Below, one piece after another: positions 44,835-63,117 of a stretch of 64,000 nt of DNA (positions are counted from its first letter, which is position 1; each line of letters starts with the position of its first letter). A model generated the notes under the pieces. The model did not search any database, was not told where the DNA came from, and saw nothing but the letters and a program-made list of their open reading frames with translations. The DNA is from an uncultured virus (IMG/VR IMGVR_UViG_3300044732_003010) (lineage: Duplodnaviria; Heunggongvirae; Uroviricota; Caudoviricetes): positions 1 through 64,000 of IMG/VR virus record IMGVR_UViG_3300044732_003010, one strand, 5' to 3'. The translations under genes were made by a program, and so were the position numbers.

Positions 44835-44907
44835 TGTGGGGTCTAGGAGTCGAACCTAGTGTTTTAGGCTTATGAGGCCTATGTGGAAACCATTTCACTC
44901 ACCCCGC
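44835..44907 (-). tRNA. tRNA with CAT anticodon (Met or Ile2)
   Basis: GCGGGGT/ACCCCAC acceptor (one mismatch), TAGGC-CTCATAA-GCCTA anticodon arm, CTAGG-TTCGACT-CCTAG T arm; TTGACA promoter upstream; CCA not encoded. Confidence 0.85.
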
Positions 44908-44939: not shown

Positions 44940-45608
44940 TCAAGTGTATTGTACTGATAAGTTTACTGTTTTTTGTTCCTGGCTTAGACCAGCCAAATAA
45001 CCAACTATTTGGTTATTAAAGATTTGACTATTTCTAACTACAATACAGCCCGCGCTTCCAGGTACATTAGCGTCTCGATGTAATCCAATTTCTGATCGAG
45101 AAAACCCTGATCCTTTGTAAGGATCAGGCGTAATATGAAAAAACATCCCCTCAACACCTTTTGTATCTAACCAATACCCCCTAGTATTGATTTGCCAATG
45201 ATGTCCTTCTGGTATTTGTCCCTTGCCTACAATTTTTTCGGCACCTCGGTATTGATACCCAATTGCGCCACTGGTAGCCACTACTTCAATTGCGATATCA
45301 TCTCCTCGATAAAATTGCAAAATTCCTTCAATCAACCTAGGAGATCGACCTACAGGAAACTTAAAAACGGCTGTCACGGGTAAGGTGTTAGGTAAATCAG
45401 ATAAATCCCAATGTGGCTTAAATACCCACCAATCACCAGCGCCGTAGCTAAGTTTTACTTGAATGTGTAATCCATATTCAAGTAAAACTTTATCTACAGA
45501 ATAATTTCGATTTTTTTCTACAAAAATCAACTCATCTTTTTTCAAATCAGACACTTGCTCTGGAGTTTTTTTCAGATAAGTGTTAAATATTGCTGTAATT
45601 TGCTTCAT
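44940..45608 (-). CDS. Peptidoglycan-active protein with a YkuD/Tlde1(DUF2778)-like domain
   Basis: ATSG...IPEG...RSEIGLHRDANVPGSAGCI (H..S.GC); N-terminal module like that of the GH19 endolysin. Confidence 0.7.
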   Translation of the reverse strand: MKQITAIFNTYLKKTPEQVSDLKKDELIFVEKNRNYSVDKVLLEYGLHIQVKLSYGAGDWWVFKPHWDLSDLPNTLPVTAVFKFPVGRSPRLIEGILQFYRGDDIAIEVVATSGAIGYQYRGAEKIVGKGQIPEGHHWQINTRGYWLDTKGVEGMFFHITPDPYKGSGFSRSEIGLHRDANVPGSAGCIVVRNSQIFNNQIVGYLAGLSQEQKTVNLSVQYT

Positions 45609-45643
45609 TTATCCTAGCTCGCATTTTCCTTAATTCTAGCTTT

Positions 45644-45847
45644 TCAATCAATCCGATAGACAATTTCATTGGGCTGTATCTCGTACCTATCACAGATTGC
45701 CTGCAAAACTGTGATAGACGGCAAGTGATCAGGATTTTGGGATAGCTTGTATCCCGTGGACATCGCAATCCCTGTTTGCTGAACGAATTTATAGATTGTG
45801 ATGCCTCTAGATTCTGTAAATTCTTTGACTCTGTTTTTTAGTACCAT
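45644..45847 (-). CDS. XRE/Cro-family HTH regulator
   Basis: RGITIYKFVQQTGIAMSTGYKL...PSITVLQAICD. Confidence 0.85.
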   Translation of the reverse strand: MVLKNRVKEFTESRGITIYKFVQQTGIAMSTGYKLSQNPDHLPSITVLQAICDRYEIQPNEIVYRID

Positions 45848-46008
45848 TGTATTAGTTTTGTGTCTCTATAATTTATTATAACTTTTTTGGGAATATGCTT
45901 GACAATATTACTGCCTTTACGGTAATATACAGATATAGAGAAAAGCGACCACCGCCAATTCCACTTAGTGTGATCGCCTTTCCGTCAACCCTTATCAGGT
46001 CAAAAGCC

Positions 46009-46446
46009 ATGTTAGCATCCAATTCTCTTTCTGTCAAATCTAATTGCGTCCCCGTTATGTCTGGCAATTTCACTATGATTGCCAGAGGTCAAAAGCACCA
46101 GGTTTCTCTTAAAGTGTGGGGAGAAGGACAGATTACCACTCTCCGAGTTATTTGTCAGCAAACTGGTAAAGAATGGTTTTTCGATACCTTTAATGGCAAG
46201 TTAAGCCGTGGTTTCAGTCCTGACGGAAAACTCCCCAACTGCGAATTACCTGAGATTAAATTTCAACCCGTCAAAAAAGCTTTTGTTATTTCCCCTACGA
46301 TGGGATTCGTGGATTGTGGCGGACGCTACCATGAAATTCCTAGTAACGAACCTACAGACGATTTTATTGATGATGATACCGAGCCGTCGGATTTAAGTCG
46401 GTACAGCAAACCAATGACCGATCCGACGACATGGCAAGAGTTTTAA
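46009..46446 (+). CDS. Hypothetical protein divergent from the XRE gene
   Basis: ATG at 46009; TTGACA at 45899 with an overlapping ATATTAC...GTAATAT inverted repeat. Confidence 0.55.
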   Translation: MLASNSLSVKSNCVPVMSGNFTMIARGQKHQVSLKVWGEGQITTLRVICQQTGKEWFFDTFNGKLSRGFSPDGKLPNCELPEIKFQPVKKAFVISPTMGFVDCGGRYHEIPSNEPTDDFIDDDTEPSDLSRYSKPMTDPTTWQEF

Positions 46447-46500
46447 TTAGTTATCAGTTATCAGTTATCAGTAAACAGCAACCTATTAAGAGTAAAAACC

Positions 46501-46883
46501 ATGACTATTATCAACGCTACCCCCACAACATCACCATATTAAACAAAGCTGGCATCACCCAAGATGAAAAAAAACAGTTTCTGGGAAACAAAGAGGCGAT
46601 TGTGGTTCTCAAGGAAATCCCAGCATCCGGGATTCTCCCGCGGGTCAAAATGTCCAACGAACCCGCAGAACCCATTGACGGTATCCCAGTAGAAACCGTT
46701 ATCTACGGGGAGATCGAGGGACTCCCTAAGTATCAGGAGGAGGTGTACTATATTGTCTCAGGATTAGTGGCAGCGGCAGCCGCTAAGATAGGGCGCACAG
46801 ACTGCCTTGCCCCTGGTGCAATCGTCCGGGATGAGTCTAATCCCTCGAACGTTCTAGGGTGCTTGTTCTTACAAAAGCCCTAG
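46501..46883 (+). pseudogene. Conserved phage protein (MTIINATPHNITI type) with a 1-nt frameshift in a C5 run
   Basis: ATG at 46501 gives MTIINATP; HNITILN...IPASG...DGIPV..YGEIEGLP...YYIVS continues in another frame. Confidence 0.6.
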
Positions 46884-46946
46884 CCGATCCGAAACGGGAA
46901 CCTTTCCCGTATGCCTAGCGGCTCAATTCTAGGCACTGATGAGGAT
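46882..46946 (+). ncRNA. Hammerhead ribozyme, type II
   Basis: ATCC-GAAA-CGGGAA(CCT)TTCCCG-TA-TGCCTAG(CGGCTCAATT)CTAGGCA-CTGATGA-GGAT: full core, three stems, AGCCG/CGGCT pseudoknot. Confidence 0.9.
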
Positions 46947-47008
46947 AGAAGGAGTTACGGCTATCCTAAAATGGGAGGTGCAATTCCTCCCTCTACAAAT
47001 CGATATAT

Positions 47009-47287
47009 TTGAACATGAACATGAACGAGGAATCCAGAAAAATACTAGGAACAATTGCAAGGCTAGAGAACGCATCGTATCTTTTGATTGCTATCTTAAT
47101 CGGAATGGTAGTGTTTGGAGTAGGTCAAACACTACACAAAGCTAATCACTACCTTGCATCACAAGGACACGAAAACCCAAAAGTACTATTGCTTCCATCT
47201 TGGAGGTGTGGAACATTTACCGAATTGAATTTCCATCAGAACGACGGAAATAGAGGATATTTGTGTGCAAAACAGATAAGGAGGTAG
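47009..47287 (+). CDS. Small membrane protein
   Basis: Hydrophobic YLLIAILIGMVVFGV. Confidence 0.5.
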   Translation: MNMNMNEESRKILGTIARLENASYLLIAILIGMVVFGVGQTLHKANHYLASQGHENPKVLLLPSWRCGTFTELNFHQNDGNRGYLCAKQIRR

Positions 47288-47402
47288 GTTGTCCAATCAG
47301 TACTCAACGAAGTGAAACCTAATAAGATGATGCTGTAGCAAATGCAGATTGGCGCATAGAAGATTAAGGTTATCAGTAAACAAATTATTTAGGAGTAAAA
47401 CA

Positions 47403-47870
47403 ATGACAATGATGGATATAGGACAATTCCCTAAGATTGACTCAGAGCCACAAGAGTTCAAGTTAAACTGGTACGAAACAAAGTTAATTTATCCTTTTAA
47501 ATACTCAGAAGGAGTTCATTATTTTATTCAAAAGGATCAAGAATGGATAATCGACGAAATTGCTAAATGGGTAAAGGAAAGAGAACATTGCAAAGAAGAT
47601 TTTCCTTTAATTATTGACTGGAAACTAAAAATAAGTTCAAATTCAGATCATTTTGCTACACTAACCTGCGAAAATCGCCAAAATGCCGACTTTAAGTTTG
47701 CCTTTTTTGCATTTTTCCCAAATACTGATATTGAGTTATTCTACGATGGTAATCCCATAGACGAAGTTAACTTTTGTTTGTTTAATATAGCCGATTCTTC
47801 TAAAACGGAATTAATGCTTGAAGAAGAATGGATGTATTTACGTAGTATTACATCAAGACTATTTACTTAG
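47403..47870 (+). CDS. DUF6876-like hypothetical protein
   Basis: YSEGVHY...WIIDEIA...WKL...ATLTCEN...TD; AGGAG RBS before 47403. Confidence 0.55.
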   Translation: MTMMDIGQFPKIDSEPQEFKLNWYETKLIYPFKYSEGVHYFIQKDQEWIIDEIAKWVKEREHCKEDFPLIIDWKLKISSNSDHFATLTCENRQNADFKFAFFAFFPNTDIELFYDGNPIDEVNFCLFNIADSSKTELMLEEEWMYLRSITSRLFT

Positions 47871-47920
47871 TTTCGATCAGCTATTAGTTATCAGTCAACA
47901 ATCATCAACCAAACAAAAAA

Positions 47921-48472
47921 ATGAAACCTCTGTATAAATTAGGCAAATATCACAATCTAAAACGTCTAAACAAGATAGTAGAATTGAGCAGTTCTACTAC
48001 CTTTTCTGCGAGAGCAAAACACAATTGGGTTAACAATCCTTTTTCAGAGTTGTTTGATCCTTATTCTCTATGGTGGACATTGGGGGTGGAATGGCACGTT
48101 GACGACATTGATAAAGATAAAAAATATTCAATTATTTTAGTTGTTCAGAGTGACAACTACGAACTCTACTCTTCTACAGTAAACAATGATACTTTAGAAA
48201 AACTCTTGAAAGATTATACTCCCTTTAAAAGTATGGATGATCAAATAAACTCTTTATTAGTCCAAAGAAAAGATACTCAAAAATTAGTCTTAAAAGCGGG
48301 AGATATTTTGCTGCTGGACATATCCTGCTACCATAAGCTGGAAAACACAAAAAAAACAGAAGACCCCTTTATGTTTATTACCTTAGATATTGACCTTATT
48401 CCAAGAGTCAAGGAAGCGGTCAAGGTTGTCAATTATTTTGTTCACGATTTTTTTGTAATCAATGAGGAGTAA
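47921..48472 (+). CDS. Cupin / 2OG-Fe(II) oxygenase-like protein
   Basis: WHVD...LKAGDILLLD...YH, an HxD...H metal triad pattern. Confidence 0.6.
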   Translation: MKPLYKLGKYHNLKRLNKIVELSSSTTFSARAKHNWVNNPFSELFDPYSLWWTLGVEWHVDDIDKDKKYSIILVVQSDNYELYSSTVNNDTLEKLLKDYTPFKSMDDQINSLLVQRKDTQKLVLKAGDILLLDISCYHKLENTKKTEDPFMFITLDIDLIPRVKEAVKVVNYFVHDFFVINEE

Positions 48473-48476
48473 AGCA

Positions 48477-48827
48477 ATGGAAGAAGAAATTGAAGAATGT
48501 ATGTCTCCAAGCCATCGTCATTTTTGGCTTTGCTGGTATCAATTATCTCTCCTAGAGAAAAAGGTCTGCTTTTATTTTCTCTGTGGGTTTGATAACAAAG
48601 AAATTGCTAAAAAACTTTTACTAAAAACTGAAATAGTAAATGACTATACGACGGCAATTTTAAAAAAATTTAATATTTCAACTCAACCTAAGTTTATGTT
48701 CTTTTTTTATCAGCATACAGGATGGGATATAGCCAAAGACATGATTGACGATGACGAAAAAGAACAATGCGCTTTATGGGGTGTTCAAAAATGTCTAATT
48801 CCGCCTAGAATATGGAAAAATATGTAG
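48477..48827 (+). CDS. LuxR-type HTH protein
   Basis: LSLLEKKV...GFDNKEIAKKL..KTEIV..Y...ILKKF. Confidence 0.8.
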   Translation: MEEEIEECMSPSHRHFWLCWYQLSLLEKKVCFYFLCGFDNKEIAKKLLLKTEIVNDYTTAILKKFNISTQPKFMFFFYQHTGWDIAKDMIDDDEKEQCALWGVQKCLIPPRIWKNM

Positions 48828-48841
48828 TTTAACGAAAATCT

Positions 48842-49120
48842 ATGACTAATACCATTGAAAATAAATATACACCAGATTGGGTTTCTCTACCGGGAGAAAC
48901 CCTTAGTGACATCCTAAAAGAAAGAAAAATAACTAGAACTGAATTTGCTAGTCGCATAAAGTTGCCGAAAAAGACTATTAATCAACTCATAAAAGGTAAG
49001 GCAAAAATTACTGTTCGTATTGCTTATAAAATGGAATTAGCTTTAGGCGTACCTTCTGCTCGTTTCTGGATAGAGCGTGAAAGACTTTATCGAGAGTCTC
49101 TAGTAAATCAAATTGATTAG
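48842..49120 (+). CDS. HigA-like HTH antitoxin/regulator
   Basis: PGETLSDILKER.ITRTEFA...TINQLIKGKAKIT..IAYKMELALG..ARFW. Confidence 0.85.
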   Translation: MTNTIENKYTPDWVSLPGETLSDILKERKITRTEFASRIKLPKKTINQLIKGKAKITVRIAYKMELALGVPSARFWIERERLYRESLVNQID

Positions 49121-55677: not shown

Positions 55678-55953
55678 TAAGCACTAAACCGAGTGCATCC
55701 ATTAATTAGAGCCTCCATAAGCTACTGGGCGGATCAGTAACCGATTTGAAATAGTAGTCGGCTGGTGAGACTGGTTAATGAAGTGCATCCATTAATTAGA
55801 GCCTCCATAAGCTACTGGGCGGATCAGTAACCGACTTGAAATAGTAGTCGGCTGGTGAGACTGGTTAATGAGTCGTTCTAAGCTTGCTGGTGTAAACCCA
55901 GTAACCGATTTGAAATAGTAGTCGGCTGACGCACGCACTTGGTTTAGTGCTTA
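55678..55953 (+). ncRNA. Candidate structured RNA with a 19-bp closing stem and three repeated two-hairpin modules
   Basis: TAAGCACTAAACCGAGTGC...GCACTTGGTTTAGTGCTTA; 90-bp tandem duplication plus a third partial module; TGnTATATT -10 just upstream. Confidence 0.65.
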
Positions 55954-57756: not shown

Positions 57757-57768
57757 GTAAATATACTT

Positions 57769-57831
57769 AGTACATCTGCTCAGAAAAGATTCTCCCATCT
57801 ACTTGACTTTGTTGGGAGAATGATCCACAAT
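57769..57831 (+). promoter_or_regulatory. Early promoter cassette type 1 (LexA-like box + TTCTCCCA-N15-TGGGAGAA operator)
   Basis: AGTAC-ATC-TGCTC; TTGACT-17-CACAAT. Confidence 0.7.
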
Positions 57832-57860
57832 AGAAAAGCAAGAATACACACAACGACGAC

Positions 57861-58427
57861 ATGAACACTTTACAAACTAAATTAGCTCGATTGGAATCTC
57901 AACTTAAAATTACAAAAGGCAATCGTGCCAAAGCTAAGATTGTTATAGAAATTCTAAAAGTAGAATCAGCTATTGAGCGGTTAAAGCCCAAAAAAGAAAT
58001 AAAAGTAAAAAATATAACTGTTAAAATCCCTGTTAGTGTTTCTACCCTTAAAAAACACTGCTGCAACGTGCCATCTCCTAAACTGACAGACAAAGAAATT
58101 ATTGACGGATGGAAGTATTCTTTGGCTGCCCAATCAATGCAAAGAGACCTTAGAACACAAAAAGATATTCAATGGGGAGATCGCCATCTCCTTCTACAGG
58201 TAGTTTATTGGGTTAATCAATACCAGCAAGAAATGGATAAAAGGGGATTAACAGAAAAATACTGTCTATGGATCGAGAAAAAACAAGCATTTAAAGACGA
58301 ATTTCATCGGAAACCAGAAAAGGCAATTAATGAATCTAAGCCTCAAATTAATATAACCGAAACTCAAGTAATTGACCCCAAAACCAAGCAATTAGAATTA
58401 AATCTCTTTTGTGAGATGCCTGCGTAA
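57861..58427 (+). CDS. Early hypothetical protein
   Basis: N-terminal ~40 aa shared with 55087..55548; different C-terminus. Confidence 0.7.
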   Translation: MNTLQTKLARLESQLKITKGNRAKAKIVIEILKVESAIERLKPKKEIKVKNITVKIPVSVSTLKKHCCNVPSPKLTDKEIIDGWKYSLAAQSMQRDLRTQKDIQWGDRHLLLQVVYWVNQYQQEMDKRGLTEKYCLWIEKKQAFKDEFHRKPEKAINESKPQINITETQVIDPKTKQLELNLFCEMPA

Positions 58428-59047: not shown

Positions 59048-59428
59048 ATGATCTTAATCTTATCTCTTGAATTGGAAGATTTTGAAGTTTTAAAATCTTC
59101 TATTCAGAAAATCGACAACATTGACACTAACTTAAGTCTTGTTAAGCTACAAGATTACTCTTTATCGGGCATAGCCTTGACAAGAGTAGCTTTAATCTGT
59201 GATAAGCCTCCTCAGATAATCGCAAAAAAAGGAATCAACTTTTCTACAGAAGCAGTTATCCCTGAAACCAAATACTGCGTTGCTTGCTTAGTTTTAGGTA
59301 AGTTTACGCCACTCAATACCCGTAACAATTCTGGATACTGCTTGGAACACCGAGAACTCGATCCTAAACGAAAACAGGATCAACACCAACGTTACAAACA
59401 AAGACGTAGTACAAACGTTCAGAAATAA
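59048..59428 (+). CDS. Hypothetical protein with a C-terminal Zn motif
   Basis: CVAC...N.SGYCLEH. Confidence 0.6.
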   Translation: MILILSLELEDFEVLKSSIQKIDNIDTNLSLVKLQDYSLSGIALTRVALICDKPPQIIAKKGINFSTEAVIPETKYCVACLVLGKFTPLNTRNNSGYCLEHRELDPKRKQDQHQRYKQRRSTNVQK

Positions 59429-59470
59429 TTCTCCCATCTACTTGATTTTATTGGGAGAATTTTGTAAGAT
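59408..59470 (+). promoter_or_regulatory. Early promoter cassette type 1
   Basis: AGTAC-AAA-CGTTC; TTCTCCCA-N15-TGGGAGAA; TTGATT-17-TAAGAT. Confidence 0.7.
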
Positions 59471-59504
59471 AAGACTAGGCAAACAAACACAAGAGGACAA
59501 AGTT

Positions 59505-60887
59505 ATGACTTCCATTAATGATGATTGGTTACTTTACGAGTATGAAACATTGGTACTTATCAAGCATATCGAAAAAAATCTCAATCAAATTAACCAAAGA
59601 TACTTTGAGGGAAACCACGGAATACTAAGCGTCACCGATAACGGCAATTATGTTACAGTCAAAAGACAGGGTTTATCTGTTGCTGACTATGACACTCAAA
59701 AGCTTTTTGACGCACTAGAAAATTTTAGTCAAGAAGAGTACGAGCTTTCCTGTTACGATCTTTGGGATTATTTCGATCATTGTAAATACACCCCACAAGA
59801 GGACAAAAAAATGACTTCAAATATCGAACTTTACGAAAAAGCCACAATTATCAGGTTTTTCCAAAGCACCCTCAATCAAATTAACCAAGAGTGTTTCGGA
59901 GAAAAATTGTCAGTCACTGATAACGGTGATTATGTTACGGTCAAAACGCAAGGGTTATTTGTTGCAAATTATGACATCCAAAAGCTTTGGAACGCACTAG
60001 AAAACTATGATCAAGAGGACTGTGTTAAATTTGATAATTTGTGGGATTATCTTGATAATTGTAAATACATCCTTCCAGAAAATCAGGAAACTGAAAATGA
60101 GTTAAAGACTGATGACGAGTTATCTTTTTCTGAAAAAACACAGGTTGCCCTCGTTGATTTGTTGTTAAGTGAACCTGACTTAGAATACCAAGAGTTCAAT
60201 AAAGCATGGATTGAAAAGGAAACCTTAAAATGGGAAAATATTGAATTGACTCAATCTATTCAAGAGATGCACAATCTCAGACGGCGTGAACTTAAAGAAG
60301 GATCTGAGATTATTAACCACTTGACGGCCCGTATTCATGAATTAAAACAGGACAAAGAGTCTAGTGGAGCATGGATTGAAAACTTAAAGCAACGAATACA
60401 TGATCTTGAATGTACAGTTTCTCTACTGCAAAAAGAAACAAATCAAATAACAGTTCTAAACGAATCTGTTACTCAATTACAAATTCGTATTTATCAACTG
60501 GAACAGGAAAACAAGCAACTAAAAACCAATCAACTAGAAACCAAACTAGAACCTAAACTGACGGATAACAAGGCTAAAAAACCTAAATTTAAATTACCAG
60601 AAAACTTTGCTGACTACCAACAAGAGTGCGACGACTTAATTGACGCATTGTCTTGCTTTTACAATATCAAAAAAGGTAAATGGGGAAAAGACATTCTCCA
60701 GTTTATTCTTACTCCCAACGATACCGAAAAAGCAAAGCATCCATATCCTGACAAGTGGAAAGCAGGGCTATATTTACATGGACAGTGGACAGTCGATAAA
60801 GTCAATCTATCCGACCCTGATGAATGGAAAGACTGGTTTATGGATGTCAACGACTTTGCTGACGCTAACGACATAGAGATTAGTTAG
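59505..60887 (+). CDS. Protein with a duplicated ~100-aa N-terminal domain and long coiled coil
   Basis: Two LNQINQ..F...LSVTDNG.YVTVK.QGL.VA.YD.QKL..ALEN repeats; ATG at 59505. Confidence 0.75.
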   Translation: MTSINDDWLLYEYETLVLIKHIEKNLNQINQRYFEGNHGILSVTDNGNYVTVKRQGLSVADYDTQKLFDALENFSQEEYELSCYDLWDYFDHCKYTPQEDKKMTSNIELYEKATIIRFFQSTLNQINQECFGEKLSVTDNGDYVTVKTQGLFVANYDIQKLWNALENYDQEDCVKFDNLWDYLDNCKYILPENQETENELKTDDELSFSEKTQVALVDLLLSEPDLEYQEFNKAWIEKETLKWENIELTQSIQEMHNLRRRELKEGSEIINHLTARIHELKQDKESSGAWIENLKQRIHDLECTVSLLQKETNQITVLNESVTQLQIRIYQLEQENKQLKTNQLETKLEPKLTDNKAKKPKFKLPENFADYQQECDDLIDALSCFYNIKKGKWGKDILQFILTPNDTEKAKHPYPDKWKAGLYLHGQWTVDKVNLSDPDEWKDWFMDVNDFADANDIEIS

Positions 60888-60909
60888 TTTCTAGTTATCA
60901 GTTATCAGT

Positions 60910-60972
60910 AGTACACTTGTTCAGAAAAGATTCTCCCAGATAGTTGACATTACTGGGAGAACGATCCATAAT
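60910..60972 (+). promoter_or_regulatory. Early promoter cassette type 1
   Basis: AGTAC-ACT-TGTTC; TTCTCCCA-N15-TGGGAGAA; TTGACA-17-CATAAT. Confidence 0.75.
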
Positions 60973-61004
60973 AGAAAGTAACCAAAACACAGAAAAACAA
61001 GATT

Positions 61005-61148
61005 ATGGATAACGCTAAACAACCAATCGAAACAACACAAATTTCTGAAATTAAAAAAGCTCGAATTTTCTGCAAAGAGATTGAGCAAATAACTCAATCT
61101 CTAAATCAGGAAGCACAAACAGTGCTAGGCAAATATCCGACGCTGTAA
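61005..61148 (+). CDS. Small 47-aa early protein (not in the ORF track)
   Basis: MDNAKQPIETT...GKYPTL directly downstream of the promoter cassette. Confidence 0.5.
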   Translation: MDNAKQPIETTQISEIKKARIFCKEIEQITQSLNQEAQTVLGKYPTL

Positions 61149-61292
61149 TCAGTTATTAGTTATCAGTTGTCATCCGTCAAAAAGTGTGTGATTGCTTTAT
61201 TAGCTTGATTTTCCGAGATTTTTGGCAGTCCTGCGATCAGTGTAACTATAGGTAAATCTACAAACTACAAAAAGATAATAAAAAAGTTTGAC

Positions 61293-61362
61293 AAAACACT
61301 TGACATACAAACATATACCTGTCATTATAGGTATATACCAAAAAACCAAAGGAGTTCACGAT
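61293..61362 (+). repeat. 70-bp promoter+RBS cassette type 2, copy 1
   Basis: Identical to 62367-62436; TTGACA, ATATACCT...AGGTATAT inverted repeat, AAGGAG. Confidence 0.9.
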
Positions 61363-61828: not shown

Positions 61829-61929
61829 TCTAATCGGGGTTTAAAAATATTTCTTAAACCCCTTGACAACATACAAACATATCCCCTACAATGGGGATAT
61901 AGAAAAACAAACACAAAAGAGTTAAACAG

Positions 61930-62193: not shown

Positions 62194-62377
62194 ATGTCAA
62201 TCACAGAAAATCTCTAAAAAAGGGTTCTCTGTGTCAGGAAAACAGAGATACCGATGCAAGGATTGCAATCATCATTTTACTGGTAATCCGGCAGGAAAAC
62301 CCCCCCACACTGATTCAATGACTAACGCCGAAAGATGTCGTCGTTATCGGTTGAAAAAAAAACAAAAAAACACTTGA
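62174..62377 (+). CDS. Stand-alone InsA-like zinc-ribbon protein
   Basis: CPKCQS..I.K.G...SGKQRYRCKDC...F; MTNAERCRRYR; no transposase catalytic domain. Confidence 0.65.
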   Translation: MTMQCPKCQSQKISKKGFSVSGKQRYRCKDCNHHFTGNPAGKPPHTDSMTNAERCRRYRLKKKQKNT

Positions 62378-62436
62378 CATACAAACATATACCTGTCATT
62401 ATAGGTATATACCAAAAAACCAAAGGAGTTCACGAT
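62367..62436 (+). repeat. 70-bp promoter+RBS cassette type 2, copy 2
   Basis: Identical to 61293-61362. Confidence 0.9.
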
Positions 62437-63070
62437 GACCGAAAAACTACCCAATCAAGTCGCATTAGAAATGGTGAACTTACCAGCAGGTGAGTTTCTC
62501 ATAGGCTCTCCTGATAGTGATCCCGATGTTCAAAATCATCAAAAGCCTTCACACCAAGTTAAAGTCAACAGTTTTGCGATTGGCAAATATCCGGTGACTC
62601 AGGAACAATATCAAGCAGTAATGGGAACCAATCCCTCTCACTTTAAAAATAATCCCCAAAATCCGGTAGAACAGGTTAGTTGGGACGATGCTAGAGCTTT
62701 TTGTCAGAAATTGAGTCGAATAACCGGTAAAACCTATCGCCTACCCACAGAAGCGGAATGGGAATATGCTTGTCGAGCAGGTACAACTACTACATATTAT
62801 TTTGGTGATGATGCTAATCAGTTAAGAGATTATGCTTGGTATAGCGAAAATTCTAATGACACAACTCATCCCGTAGGACAGAAAAAGCCCAATGGTTGGG
62901 GACTGTATGACATGAGTGGTAATGTTTGGGAGTGGTGCGAAGATAGTTGTCTGCGCGGCGGTTCTTGGTTCATCAATCCGAGGTACTGTCGCAGTGCGGT
63001 TCGTTTCTGGCTCTTCCCCGGCTTCCGCTTCAACTTCAGCCTCGGTTTTCGAGTTGTCTGCGACAATTAG
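62435..63070 (+). CDS. FGE-sulfatase (C-type lectin fold) domain protein with a DGR-type variable C-terminus
   Basis: PAGEF.IGS, YPVTQ, RLPTEAEWEYACRAG, DMSGNVWEW, LRGGSW...GFRV. Confidence 0.9.
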   Translation: MTEKLPNQVALEMVNLPAGEFLIGSPDSDPDVQNHQKPSHQVKVNSFAIGKYPVTQEQYQAVMGTNPSHFKNNPQNPVEQVSWDDARAFCQKLSRITGKTYRLPTEAEWEYACRAGTTTTYYFGDDANQLRDYAWYSENSNDTTHPVGQKKPNGWGLYDMSGNVWEWCEDSCLRGGSWFINPRYCRSAVRFWLFPGFRFNFSLGFRVVCDN

Positions 63071-63117
63071 TCAGTTATCAGTTATCAGTTGTCAGCAACG
63101 AATCAACGGGAGTAATT

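Follow-up and report, generated by a model that had tools for sequence, protein, structure and literature searches.

Type II hammerhead ribozymes that adjoin phage genes have already been described in PMC3088659, where Perreault et al. (2011) accept a candidate as a hammerhead when the core-adjacent pairs of its three helices are intact. In the canonical type II architecture outlined there, loop I forms a pseudoknot with the 3' tail located just after stem II. Type II hammerheads near phage-like genes of Desulfovibrio vulgaris are reported to cleave both in vivo and in vitro in a study that used cyPhyRNA-seq (PMC8782182). Phage hammerheads are frequent, and their biological role in phages is still unproven. 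A full-text literature search, judged by titles and abstracts, brought up no paper that describes a hammerhead in cyanophages of the Microcystis type.

The locus analyzed here lies in a 64,000-nt stretch of DNA (the window), which is part of the 88,081-bp IMG/VR virus record IMGVR_UViG_3300044732_003010, rated complete by CheckV. A complete type II hammerhead is found at 46887-46946 on the + strand, as judged from the sequence, the consensus elements and an Infernal alignment. The best explanation, and one that we consider likely, is that of a genuine self-cleaving ribozyme that travels with a small gene and would be transcribed as part of an early-type gene cluster in a cyanophage of the Microcystis type.

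Results and Discussion

Genomic Context

The window encodes a large terminase, a primase/helicase, a ribonucleotide reductase, a thymidylate synthase, methyltransferases and a tail assembly protein. The initial annotation had placed the hammerhead in a phage, and the genes for the terminase, primase/helicase, ribonucleotide reductase and tail assembly protein bear this out. Among deposited phages, relatedness at the nucleotide level is confined to the Ma-LMM01/MaMV-DC group of Microcystis phages, where a few genes are 68-76% identical. The hammerhead sits on the coding strand inside a run of small + strand ORFs extending from 45895 to 49120, which ends with genes for a LuxR-type and an XRE-type regulator. 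Directly upstream lies an ORF of 150 aa (46431..46883, + strand, stop codon TAG at 46881-46883), which is assigned to PHROG 21731 of unknown function and is a homologue of Ma-LMM01 gp061, with 68% amino acid identity over 120 aa.

According to PMC5780444, gp054-gp063 make up the early expression class of Ma-LMM01. From the gp061 homology, it can reasonably be inferred that the gene cluster of the window would be an early operon. The annotation had spoken of an early phage operon outright. The operon part agrees with the same-strand ORFs on both sides of the ribozyme and with a + strand scan from 45928 to 48099, in which neither a sigma-70-like promoter nor an intrinsic-terminator pattern appears, but the word "early" stands by homology only. 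In Ma-LMM01 itself, gp061 is followed by unrelated AT-rich DNA with no ribozyme behind the gene, and 16.4 kb of Ma-LMM01 and MaMV-DC gave no Rfam match at E<=1. Hence, the ribozyme is not a feature of cultured Fukuivirus genomes.

The surrounding DNA holds some further elements. A tRNA-Met gene (anticodon CAT) is located at 44835-44907 on the - strand, with 52 bits in Rfam, and is also called by ARAGORN. Runs of the heptamers TTATCAG/AGTTATC occur at 46443-46473, 47873-47903, 60880-60910, 61145-61175 and 63067-63097, at or near the 5' ends of ORFs or between ORFs. Very many short contigs from four RNA libraries pile up on the copy at 46443-46479, to a depth of up to about 690, indicating that the heptamer repeat is common to other abundant genomes, possibly that of the host. 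Two near-identical 90-nt units stand in tandem in an intergenic region at 55692-55871, followed by a third, partial copy of 30 nt at 55899-55928.

Architecture of the Hammerhead

Read along the + strand from 46882 to 46946, the element is composed of AGCCG, AUCC, GAAA, CGGGAA-CCU-UUCCCG, UA^, UGCCUAG-CGGCUCAAUU-CUAGGCA, CUGAUGA and GGAU. The 5' strand of stem II, AUCC (positions 11.4-11.1), occupies 46887..46890 and is supported by sequence, descriptor and fold alike. It is followed at 46891..46894 by the core bases G12, A13 and A14 together with A15.1 (GAAA), which are invariant across all relatives. The stem III hairpin, placed by sequence and fold, spans 46895..46910, with CGGGAA at 46895-900, the loop CCU, and UUCCCG at 46904-09; the adjoining U16.1 (U46910) pairs with A15.1 (A46894). 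The GTA triplet falls at 46909-11, so that H17 is A46911 and not G. By the hammerhead consensus, cleavage is predicted between A46911 (H17) and U46912 (1.1).

Stem I is a hairpin of 7 bp at 46912..46935, formed by TGCCTAG (46912-18) and CTAGGCA (46929-35) around a 10-nt loop (46919-46928), and is again seen in the sequence, the descriptor match and the fold. The second core segment, C3 U4 G5 A6 U7 G8 A9 (CTGATGA, 46936..46942), is assigned by sequence and by Infernal and is invariant in the relatives. It leads into the 3' strand of stem II, GGAU (10.1-10.4), at 46943..46946, which is supported by the sequence and by the relatives. G46941 and A46942, together with the start of this strand, read GAGG, a Shine-Dalgarno-like motif.

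Stems I, II and III thus comprise 7, 4 and 6 bp, respectively, and every invariant core base is present. The pairs G46943-C46890 (10.1-11.1), U46912-A46935 (1.1-2.1) and A46894-U46910 (15.1-16.1), which adjoin the core and on which the acceptance rule of Perreault et al. rests, are all intact. The order GAAA, hairpin, GUA, hairpin, CUGAUGA, with stems I and III closed by loops and stem II open, is that of the type II permutation. When the 65-nt RNA is folded alone, its minimum-free-energy structure is that of a hammerhead with three stems. The initial annotation had proposed an intact type II hammerhead at 46882..46946, and each of the elements that it listed is found where it was placed. Its second statement, that the element matches the hammerhead consensus, is likewise upheld by the sequence, a descriptor scan, a full-length alignment to RF02276 and the minimum-free-energy fold. 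Taken together, 46887-46946 is a genuine hammerhead of type II, and probably an active one.

Significance of the Motif

The lowest-ranking alternative is that the motif merely resembles the hammerhead consensus by accident. We wrote a type II descriptor of our own (GAAA, hairpin, U-H, hairpin, CUGAUGA and pairing flanks) and scanned both strands with it. In the 64-kb window, it returns one match only, the hammerhead at 46887-46946. Among 400 random 64-kb sequences generated with a first-order Markov model, the loose setting (stems of at least 4/2/3 bp) gave 1 match and the strict setting (at least 6/4/5) gave 0.

Infernal aligns the element over the full length of the Rfam model RF02276, Hammerhead_II (model positions 1-66), with 30.0 bits, which corresponds to an E-value of 2.1e-4 on 271 nt and of 1.6e-5 for the 88-kb genome. 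The Rfam gathering score for this model is 37 bits, and the hammerhead of the window lies 7 bits below it; the ribozymes of the relatives score between 27.7 and 30.9 bits. The outcome of the Infernal scan, which the annotation had named as a check, is therefore divided: the full-length match and its per-genome E-value speak for the hammerhead, but the score remains below the gathering threshold. Because 30.0 bits are below the curated 37, the hammerhead is missing from both the default Rfam scan and the whole-window E-value scan, which list the tRNA alone. The whole-window E-value scan likewise gives no second ribozyme in the window, and the pattern CTGATGA-N(4-34)-GAAAC has 0 matches there. 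At its curated threshold, the Rfam type II model misses variants with a pseudoknot on the 5' tail.

The subthreshold score and the absence from the whole-window scans are the observations that could be held to favor accidental likeness. They stand against the near-empty random sequences, the low per-genome E-value, the presence of a 5-bp pseudoknot on top of three stems, and a conservation of the ribozyme that is strong relative to its flanks. Chance resemblance is effectively refuted by the genome E-value, the random-sequence scan and the conservation relative to the flanks, and we regard it as hardly credible.

A Predicted Pseudoknot on the 5' Side

The five nucleotides directly 5' of stem II, AGCCG (46882..46886, + strand), are complementary to the first five bases of loop I, CGGCU (46919-46923). 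A46882 and G46883 also serve as the second and third bases of the TAG that ends the upstream ORF, so that the pseudoknot strand and the stop codon overlap. Both the complementarity and the overlap had been pointed out in the initial annotation and are confirmed by the sequence. The longest Watson-Crick run with loop I is 5 bp for the 5' tail versus 3 bp for the 3' tail; a canonical pseudoknot with the tail directly after stem II is accordingly lacking, its best run being these 3 bp. The active shape is probably locked by the 5-bp pairing between the 5' tail and loop I. The resulting mirror-image topology appears self-consistent by reasoning, as the 5' tail would pair with the 5' end of the loop and leave 5 nt to cross back.

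For comparison, we parsed at least 113 distinct type II hammerheads among the viral-contig matches listed by two pattern scans (248 loci). Among these matches, a 3'-tail run of at least 4 bp occurs in 71/113, versus about 18 expected from shuffled loops. A 5'-tail run of at least 4 bp in any register occurs in 14/113 of the matches listed, versus about 10 expected, which amounts to no general enrichment. The exact register of the window, in which the base adjoining stem II on its 5' side pairs with the first base of loop I, was also tested. With runs of at least 4 bp, it recurs in three other families (L120, L201 and L266; 3/113 among the matches listed), versus 0.55 expected by permutation. 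The three tandem copies of L120 keep this register with different base pairs (A-U versus C-G). Such recurrence is suggestive and thin. When the register test was repeated on bacterial genomes, only 6/120 pattern matches could be parsed as hammerheads.

The 5-bp complementarity of AGCCG and CGGCU is conserved in the relatives and never covaries. A pattern with a free loop, used to look for covariation in loop I, retrieved 22 viral and 4 metagenome records, and the loop is identical in 26/26 of them. One of these records, L417, differs only at the stem-closing base 46918.

Conservation Among Relatives

An exact 34-nt search finds the element in 20 viral contigs. A less biased sample was obtained via the upstream protein, which gave 24 loci, one of them cut off before the gene end; among the 23 informative loci, the ribozyme is present in 19 and absent in 4. 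Three related near-complete phage records carry exactly one hammerhead each, in the same place.

Across 12 distinct sequences, derived from the 19 loci and the window, 6/65 columns of the ribozyme are variable (pi 0.020), none of them in the core, and the 16 consensus core positions show no change in any of the 26 records. The adjacent 181 bases of upstream coding sequence have 83/181 variable columns and a pi of 0.165; second codon positions reach 0.079 and third positions 0.309. For the small gene that shares a cassette with the ribozyme, the figures are 66/264 variable columns and a pi of 0.065.

All six variable sites lie outside the core. The outermost pseudoknot pair is affected by 46886 G>A in 2/12 distinct relatives, while the rest of the 5' tail is invariant. 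G46896>A, seen once, leaves the second pair of stem III mismatched; C46902>T lies in loop III, and with C46907>T pairing is retained as G.U. Single changes also affect the closing pair of stem I (46918) and, in one relative (T46946>C, L041), the outermost pair of stem II. Overall, one single change preserves pairing as G.U and four cost one pair each, at the ends of stem I, stem II and the pseudoknot and at the second pair of stem III. No compensatory double change is seen in any helix or in the pseudoknot among the relatives; the family is too uniform for covariation to speak for or against them. This pattern of conservation fits selection acting on the RNA.

The same data bear on the possibility that the ribozyme is an inactive or neutral passenger, which arrived with the small-gene cassette and persists through recent spread rather than through selection. 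The cassette is accessory and, with a pi of 0.065 against 0.165, less diverse than the flanking gene, so part of the uniformity of the ribozyme could reflect recent spread. The score below the Rfam threshold and a competing hairpin with a higher predicted stability than stem II (see below) point in the same direction. Against this, the diversity of the ribozyme is about one third of that found in its partner gene and also falls below that of the neighboring second codon positions. Moreover, the core is unchanged throughout the 26 records, and the variants fall in loops, at G.U-tolerant positions or at helix ends. A neutral passenger is improbable in our view.

An Accessory Cassette and a Promoter-like Repeat

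In four relatives (L026, L035, L043 and L044), the ribozyme is missing, and so is the small gene. L026 aligns to the window at 44949-46882 and 47369-48534, with 345 unrelated bases between the two blocks. This alignment, together with the joint absence, indicates that 46884..47368 (~485 bp, + strand) is one insertion/deletion unit that starts right after the stop codon and consists of the ribozyme, a spacer, the small gene and trailing intergenic DNA. In one ribozyme-less relative, an 82.8-kb genome that is 91% complete, a whole-record search finds no hammerhead. Given the absence from 4/23 relatives, the ribozyme is accessory and dispensable.

Assembled contigs of four freshwater RNA-library runs were compared over 46000-48000, and none of them spans 46880-47018, the ribozyme included. 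Two RNA-library runs carry the ribozyme-less allele, with a join 46879>47369 and 348 other letters in between, and in a further run the small gene has shallow coverage.

The small gene (47021..47287, + strand) is an orphan of 88 aa, or 90 aa if the start is at 47015, with one hydrophobic segment, and it always occurs together with the ribozyme. It is open in 21/21 complete copies. Its homologues form 17 clusters, all at least 78% identical, all annotated as "hypothetical" and all confined to this phage group; searches gave no Pfam match, no PHROG match and no Atlas match above 0.78. In the window, no Shine-Dalgarno sequence precedes its start.

In the ribozyme-less alleles, the slot of the ribozyme is taken by a copy of a 95-nt intergenic repeat, of which the window has three copies of its own (57768-57862, 59407-59501 and 60909-61003). 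The repeat contains an inverted repeat, TTCTCCCA/TGGGAGAA, around a -35-like hexamer, in the arrangement TTGACx-17-yAyAAT. A consensus scan flags it as promoter-like in 2/3 of the window copies and in L043. From its sequence, the 95-nt repeat probably serves as a promoter of the phage, with a hairpin that resembles an operator. The sister phages thus offer a clean natural comparison, with a 485-bp cassette of ribozyme and orphan gene in the one group and a promoter-like repeat in the other, both in the same slot.

An 83-nt repeat, at 61280-61362 and 62354-62436 with a partial copy at 61869-61912, carries TTGACA and a palindrome (ATATACCTGTCATTATAGGTATAT). It is located just upstream of AAGGAG and gene starts and resembles a second promoter/operator family.

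Spacer Hairpins and Two Natural Forms

The ribozyme-bearing phages exist in two natural forms, with and without a competing downstream hairpin. In the window and in 16/22 ribozyme-bearing viral contigs, a 73-nt spacer separates stem II from the start codon of the small gene. In the short form (6/22 contigs), this spacer is absent and the gene starts 0-3 nt after GGAU (or GGAC), in the context GAGGAU[AGC]AUG. GAGG is then located 2-5 nt before the AUG, and only 2 nt before it in two variants.

In the minimum-free-energy fold of a 166-nt context, the spacer forms two hairpins. Hairpin A (46942-46967, + strand), with the 7-bp stem AGGAUAG / CUAUCCU, uses the GGAU of stem II as well as A9 and hence competes with stem II, which it replaces in this fold. 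Hairpin B, GGGAGG / CCUCCC at 46973..46991 (+ strand), is predicted in the same fold, and the variant C46990>T keeps a G.U pair. Nested energies amount to -25.0 kcal/mol with hairpin A versus -19.7 kcal/mol with stem II. As the pseudoknot duplex would contribute about -6.6, the two states appear roughly balanced. As the nested values favor hairpin A over the 4-bp stem II, the ribozyme could be largely misfolded. As modeled, hairpin A could serve for attenuation, act as a switch, or form upon refolding of the 3' product and so release the 5' fragment. The initial annotation had mentioned neither hairpin A nor the unusual side of the pseudoknot, nor the score below the Rfam threshold.

A resemblance of the 73-nt spacer to a degenerate copy of the 5' half of the ribozyme (AUCC-UAAA-hairpin) was considered and rejected, as its alignment score is reached by 482/2000 shuffles. 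The spacer also contains a mini-ORF of 13 codons (ATG...TGA, 46971-47012), which starts 16 nt after an AAGGAG in the loop of hairpin A and spans hairpin B. This AAGGAG is mutated in several relatives, which makes a leader peptide from 46971-47012 doubtful.

The placement of these elements raises the question of whether control of the small gene, through a translational or conformational switch, is the main role of the ribozyme in place of simple processing. The GAGG that abuts the start-codon region would then be hidden in stem II or in hairpin A. Two events could decide on translation: cleavage with release of the 5' fragment, for which a 4-bp stem II and a 5-bp pseudoknot are the only hold, or termination of ribosomes on the pseudoknot strand. 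Such a role would suit the short form, where the start codon follows stem II within 0-3 nt, the overlap of the pseudoknot strand with the upstream stop codon, and ON and OFF folds that are near in energy once the pseudoknot is counted. An ATG also lies close behind the core in other 5'-tail hammerheads (8-10 nt in the three L120 copies, 9 nt in L266), and ribozyme-dependent translation initiation is reported for eukaryotic RNA viruses in PMC13725137.

The short form invites a model with a Shine-Dalgarno sequence inside the ribozyme, but its spacing from the start codon is inconsistent. In the window and most contigs, the start codon lies behind the 73-nt spacer with no Shine-Dalgarno before it, and the long form has no such arrangement at all, whereas in two short variants GAGG is too close to the ATG. 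The AAGGAG of the spacer is mutated in several relatives, and among the matches listed, most viral type II hammerheads have a separate Shine-Dalgarno 20-45 nt past the core. A predominantly switch-like role is thus a tentative possibility that we rate as unlikely.

A more elaborate proposal would combine these features into a compact "stop-to-start" subclass of type II hammerheads. Its 5'-tail pseudoknot would include stop-codon bases and the GAGG of its stem II would abut or supply the ribosome-binding region of the next gene. Folding and cleavage would be coupled to termination and initiation, replacing the promoter of the sister phages. We consider this proposal doubtful and prefer processing of the cluster transcript as the main role.

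Proposed Processing of the Cluster Transcript

The initial annotation had inferred that the ribozyme processes a polycistronic early mRNA. According to the preferred explanation, the cluster would be transcribed through the ribozyme site. Stems I, II and III would fold around the core with the help of the 5'-tail pseudoknot, and the RNA would cut itself after A46911. Cleavage would leave the gp061-like cistron on one RNA and the small membrane-protein gene, with the genes that follow it, on another. The former would keep its stop codon and carry the stem III hairpin and a 2',3'-cyclic phosphate at its 3' end, while the latter would start with a 5'-OH and the stem I hairpin. In bacterial mRNA decay, hairpin 3' ends and 5'-OH ends resist 3' exonucleases and 5'-monophosphate-dependent RNases, respectively, and both products might be affected in their stability or translation. 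The downstream message would obtain its own 5' end by processing rather than from a promoter; this idea follows from the promoter-like repeat that ribozyme-less relatives carry in the same slot.

Terminating ribosomes had been suggested to modulate folding of the ribozyme. A ribosome positioned at the TAG has an estimated footprint that covers the pseudoknot strand, the 5' strand of stem II and part of GAAA, so folding should need an unoccupied stop codon. It is therefore plausible, from the overlap of stop codon and pseudoknot, that terminating ribosomes modulate the folding.

Relation to Known Hammerheads

Comparison with the hammerheads of RF02276 and of Perreault et al. (2011) reveals an identical catalytic core, capped stems I and III and a short, open stem II. 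The window ribozyme also shares with them a pseudoknot of loop I, here a predicted one, and a position between small phage genes on the coding strand. In contrast to the canonical 3'-tail pseudoknot, the 5' end of its loop I pairs with the 5' tail that immediately precedes stem II. Its score is 7 bits under the Rfam threshold.

The closest structural parallels are the L120 (three tandem copies), L201 and L266 families, which have a stem I of 6-7 bp, a stem II of 3-4 bp and the same 5'-tail register (in runs of 4 bp) and lack a pseudoknot with the 3' tail. The L120 tails are likewise overlapped or adjoined by the stop codon of the preceding gene, and an ATG is located 8-10 nt past the core. The sequences and the phages of these three families are unrelated to those of the window. 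L120 is an IMG/VR contig of 4.8 kb, with its three tandem type II hammerheads within 940 nt. A count of stop codons abutting ribozymes among the at least 113 hammerheads listed was biased by the method and was discarded.

With the Desulfovibrio vulgaris hammerheads, as described in PMC8782182, the ribozyme of the window has in common its type and the kind of gene neighborhood. They differ in that cleavage of the former is shown by experiment, whereas for the latter it is predicted from the sequence. Its specialist interest lies in the 5'-tail pseudoknot, the exact stop-to-start placement and the polymorphism between ribozyme cassette and promoter-like repeat. Set beside these systems, the window ribozyme is a known kind of phage element with a minor structural twist, namely the side on which its pseudoknot forms.
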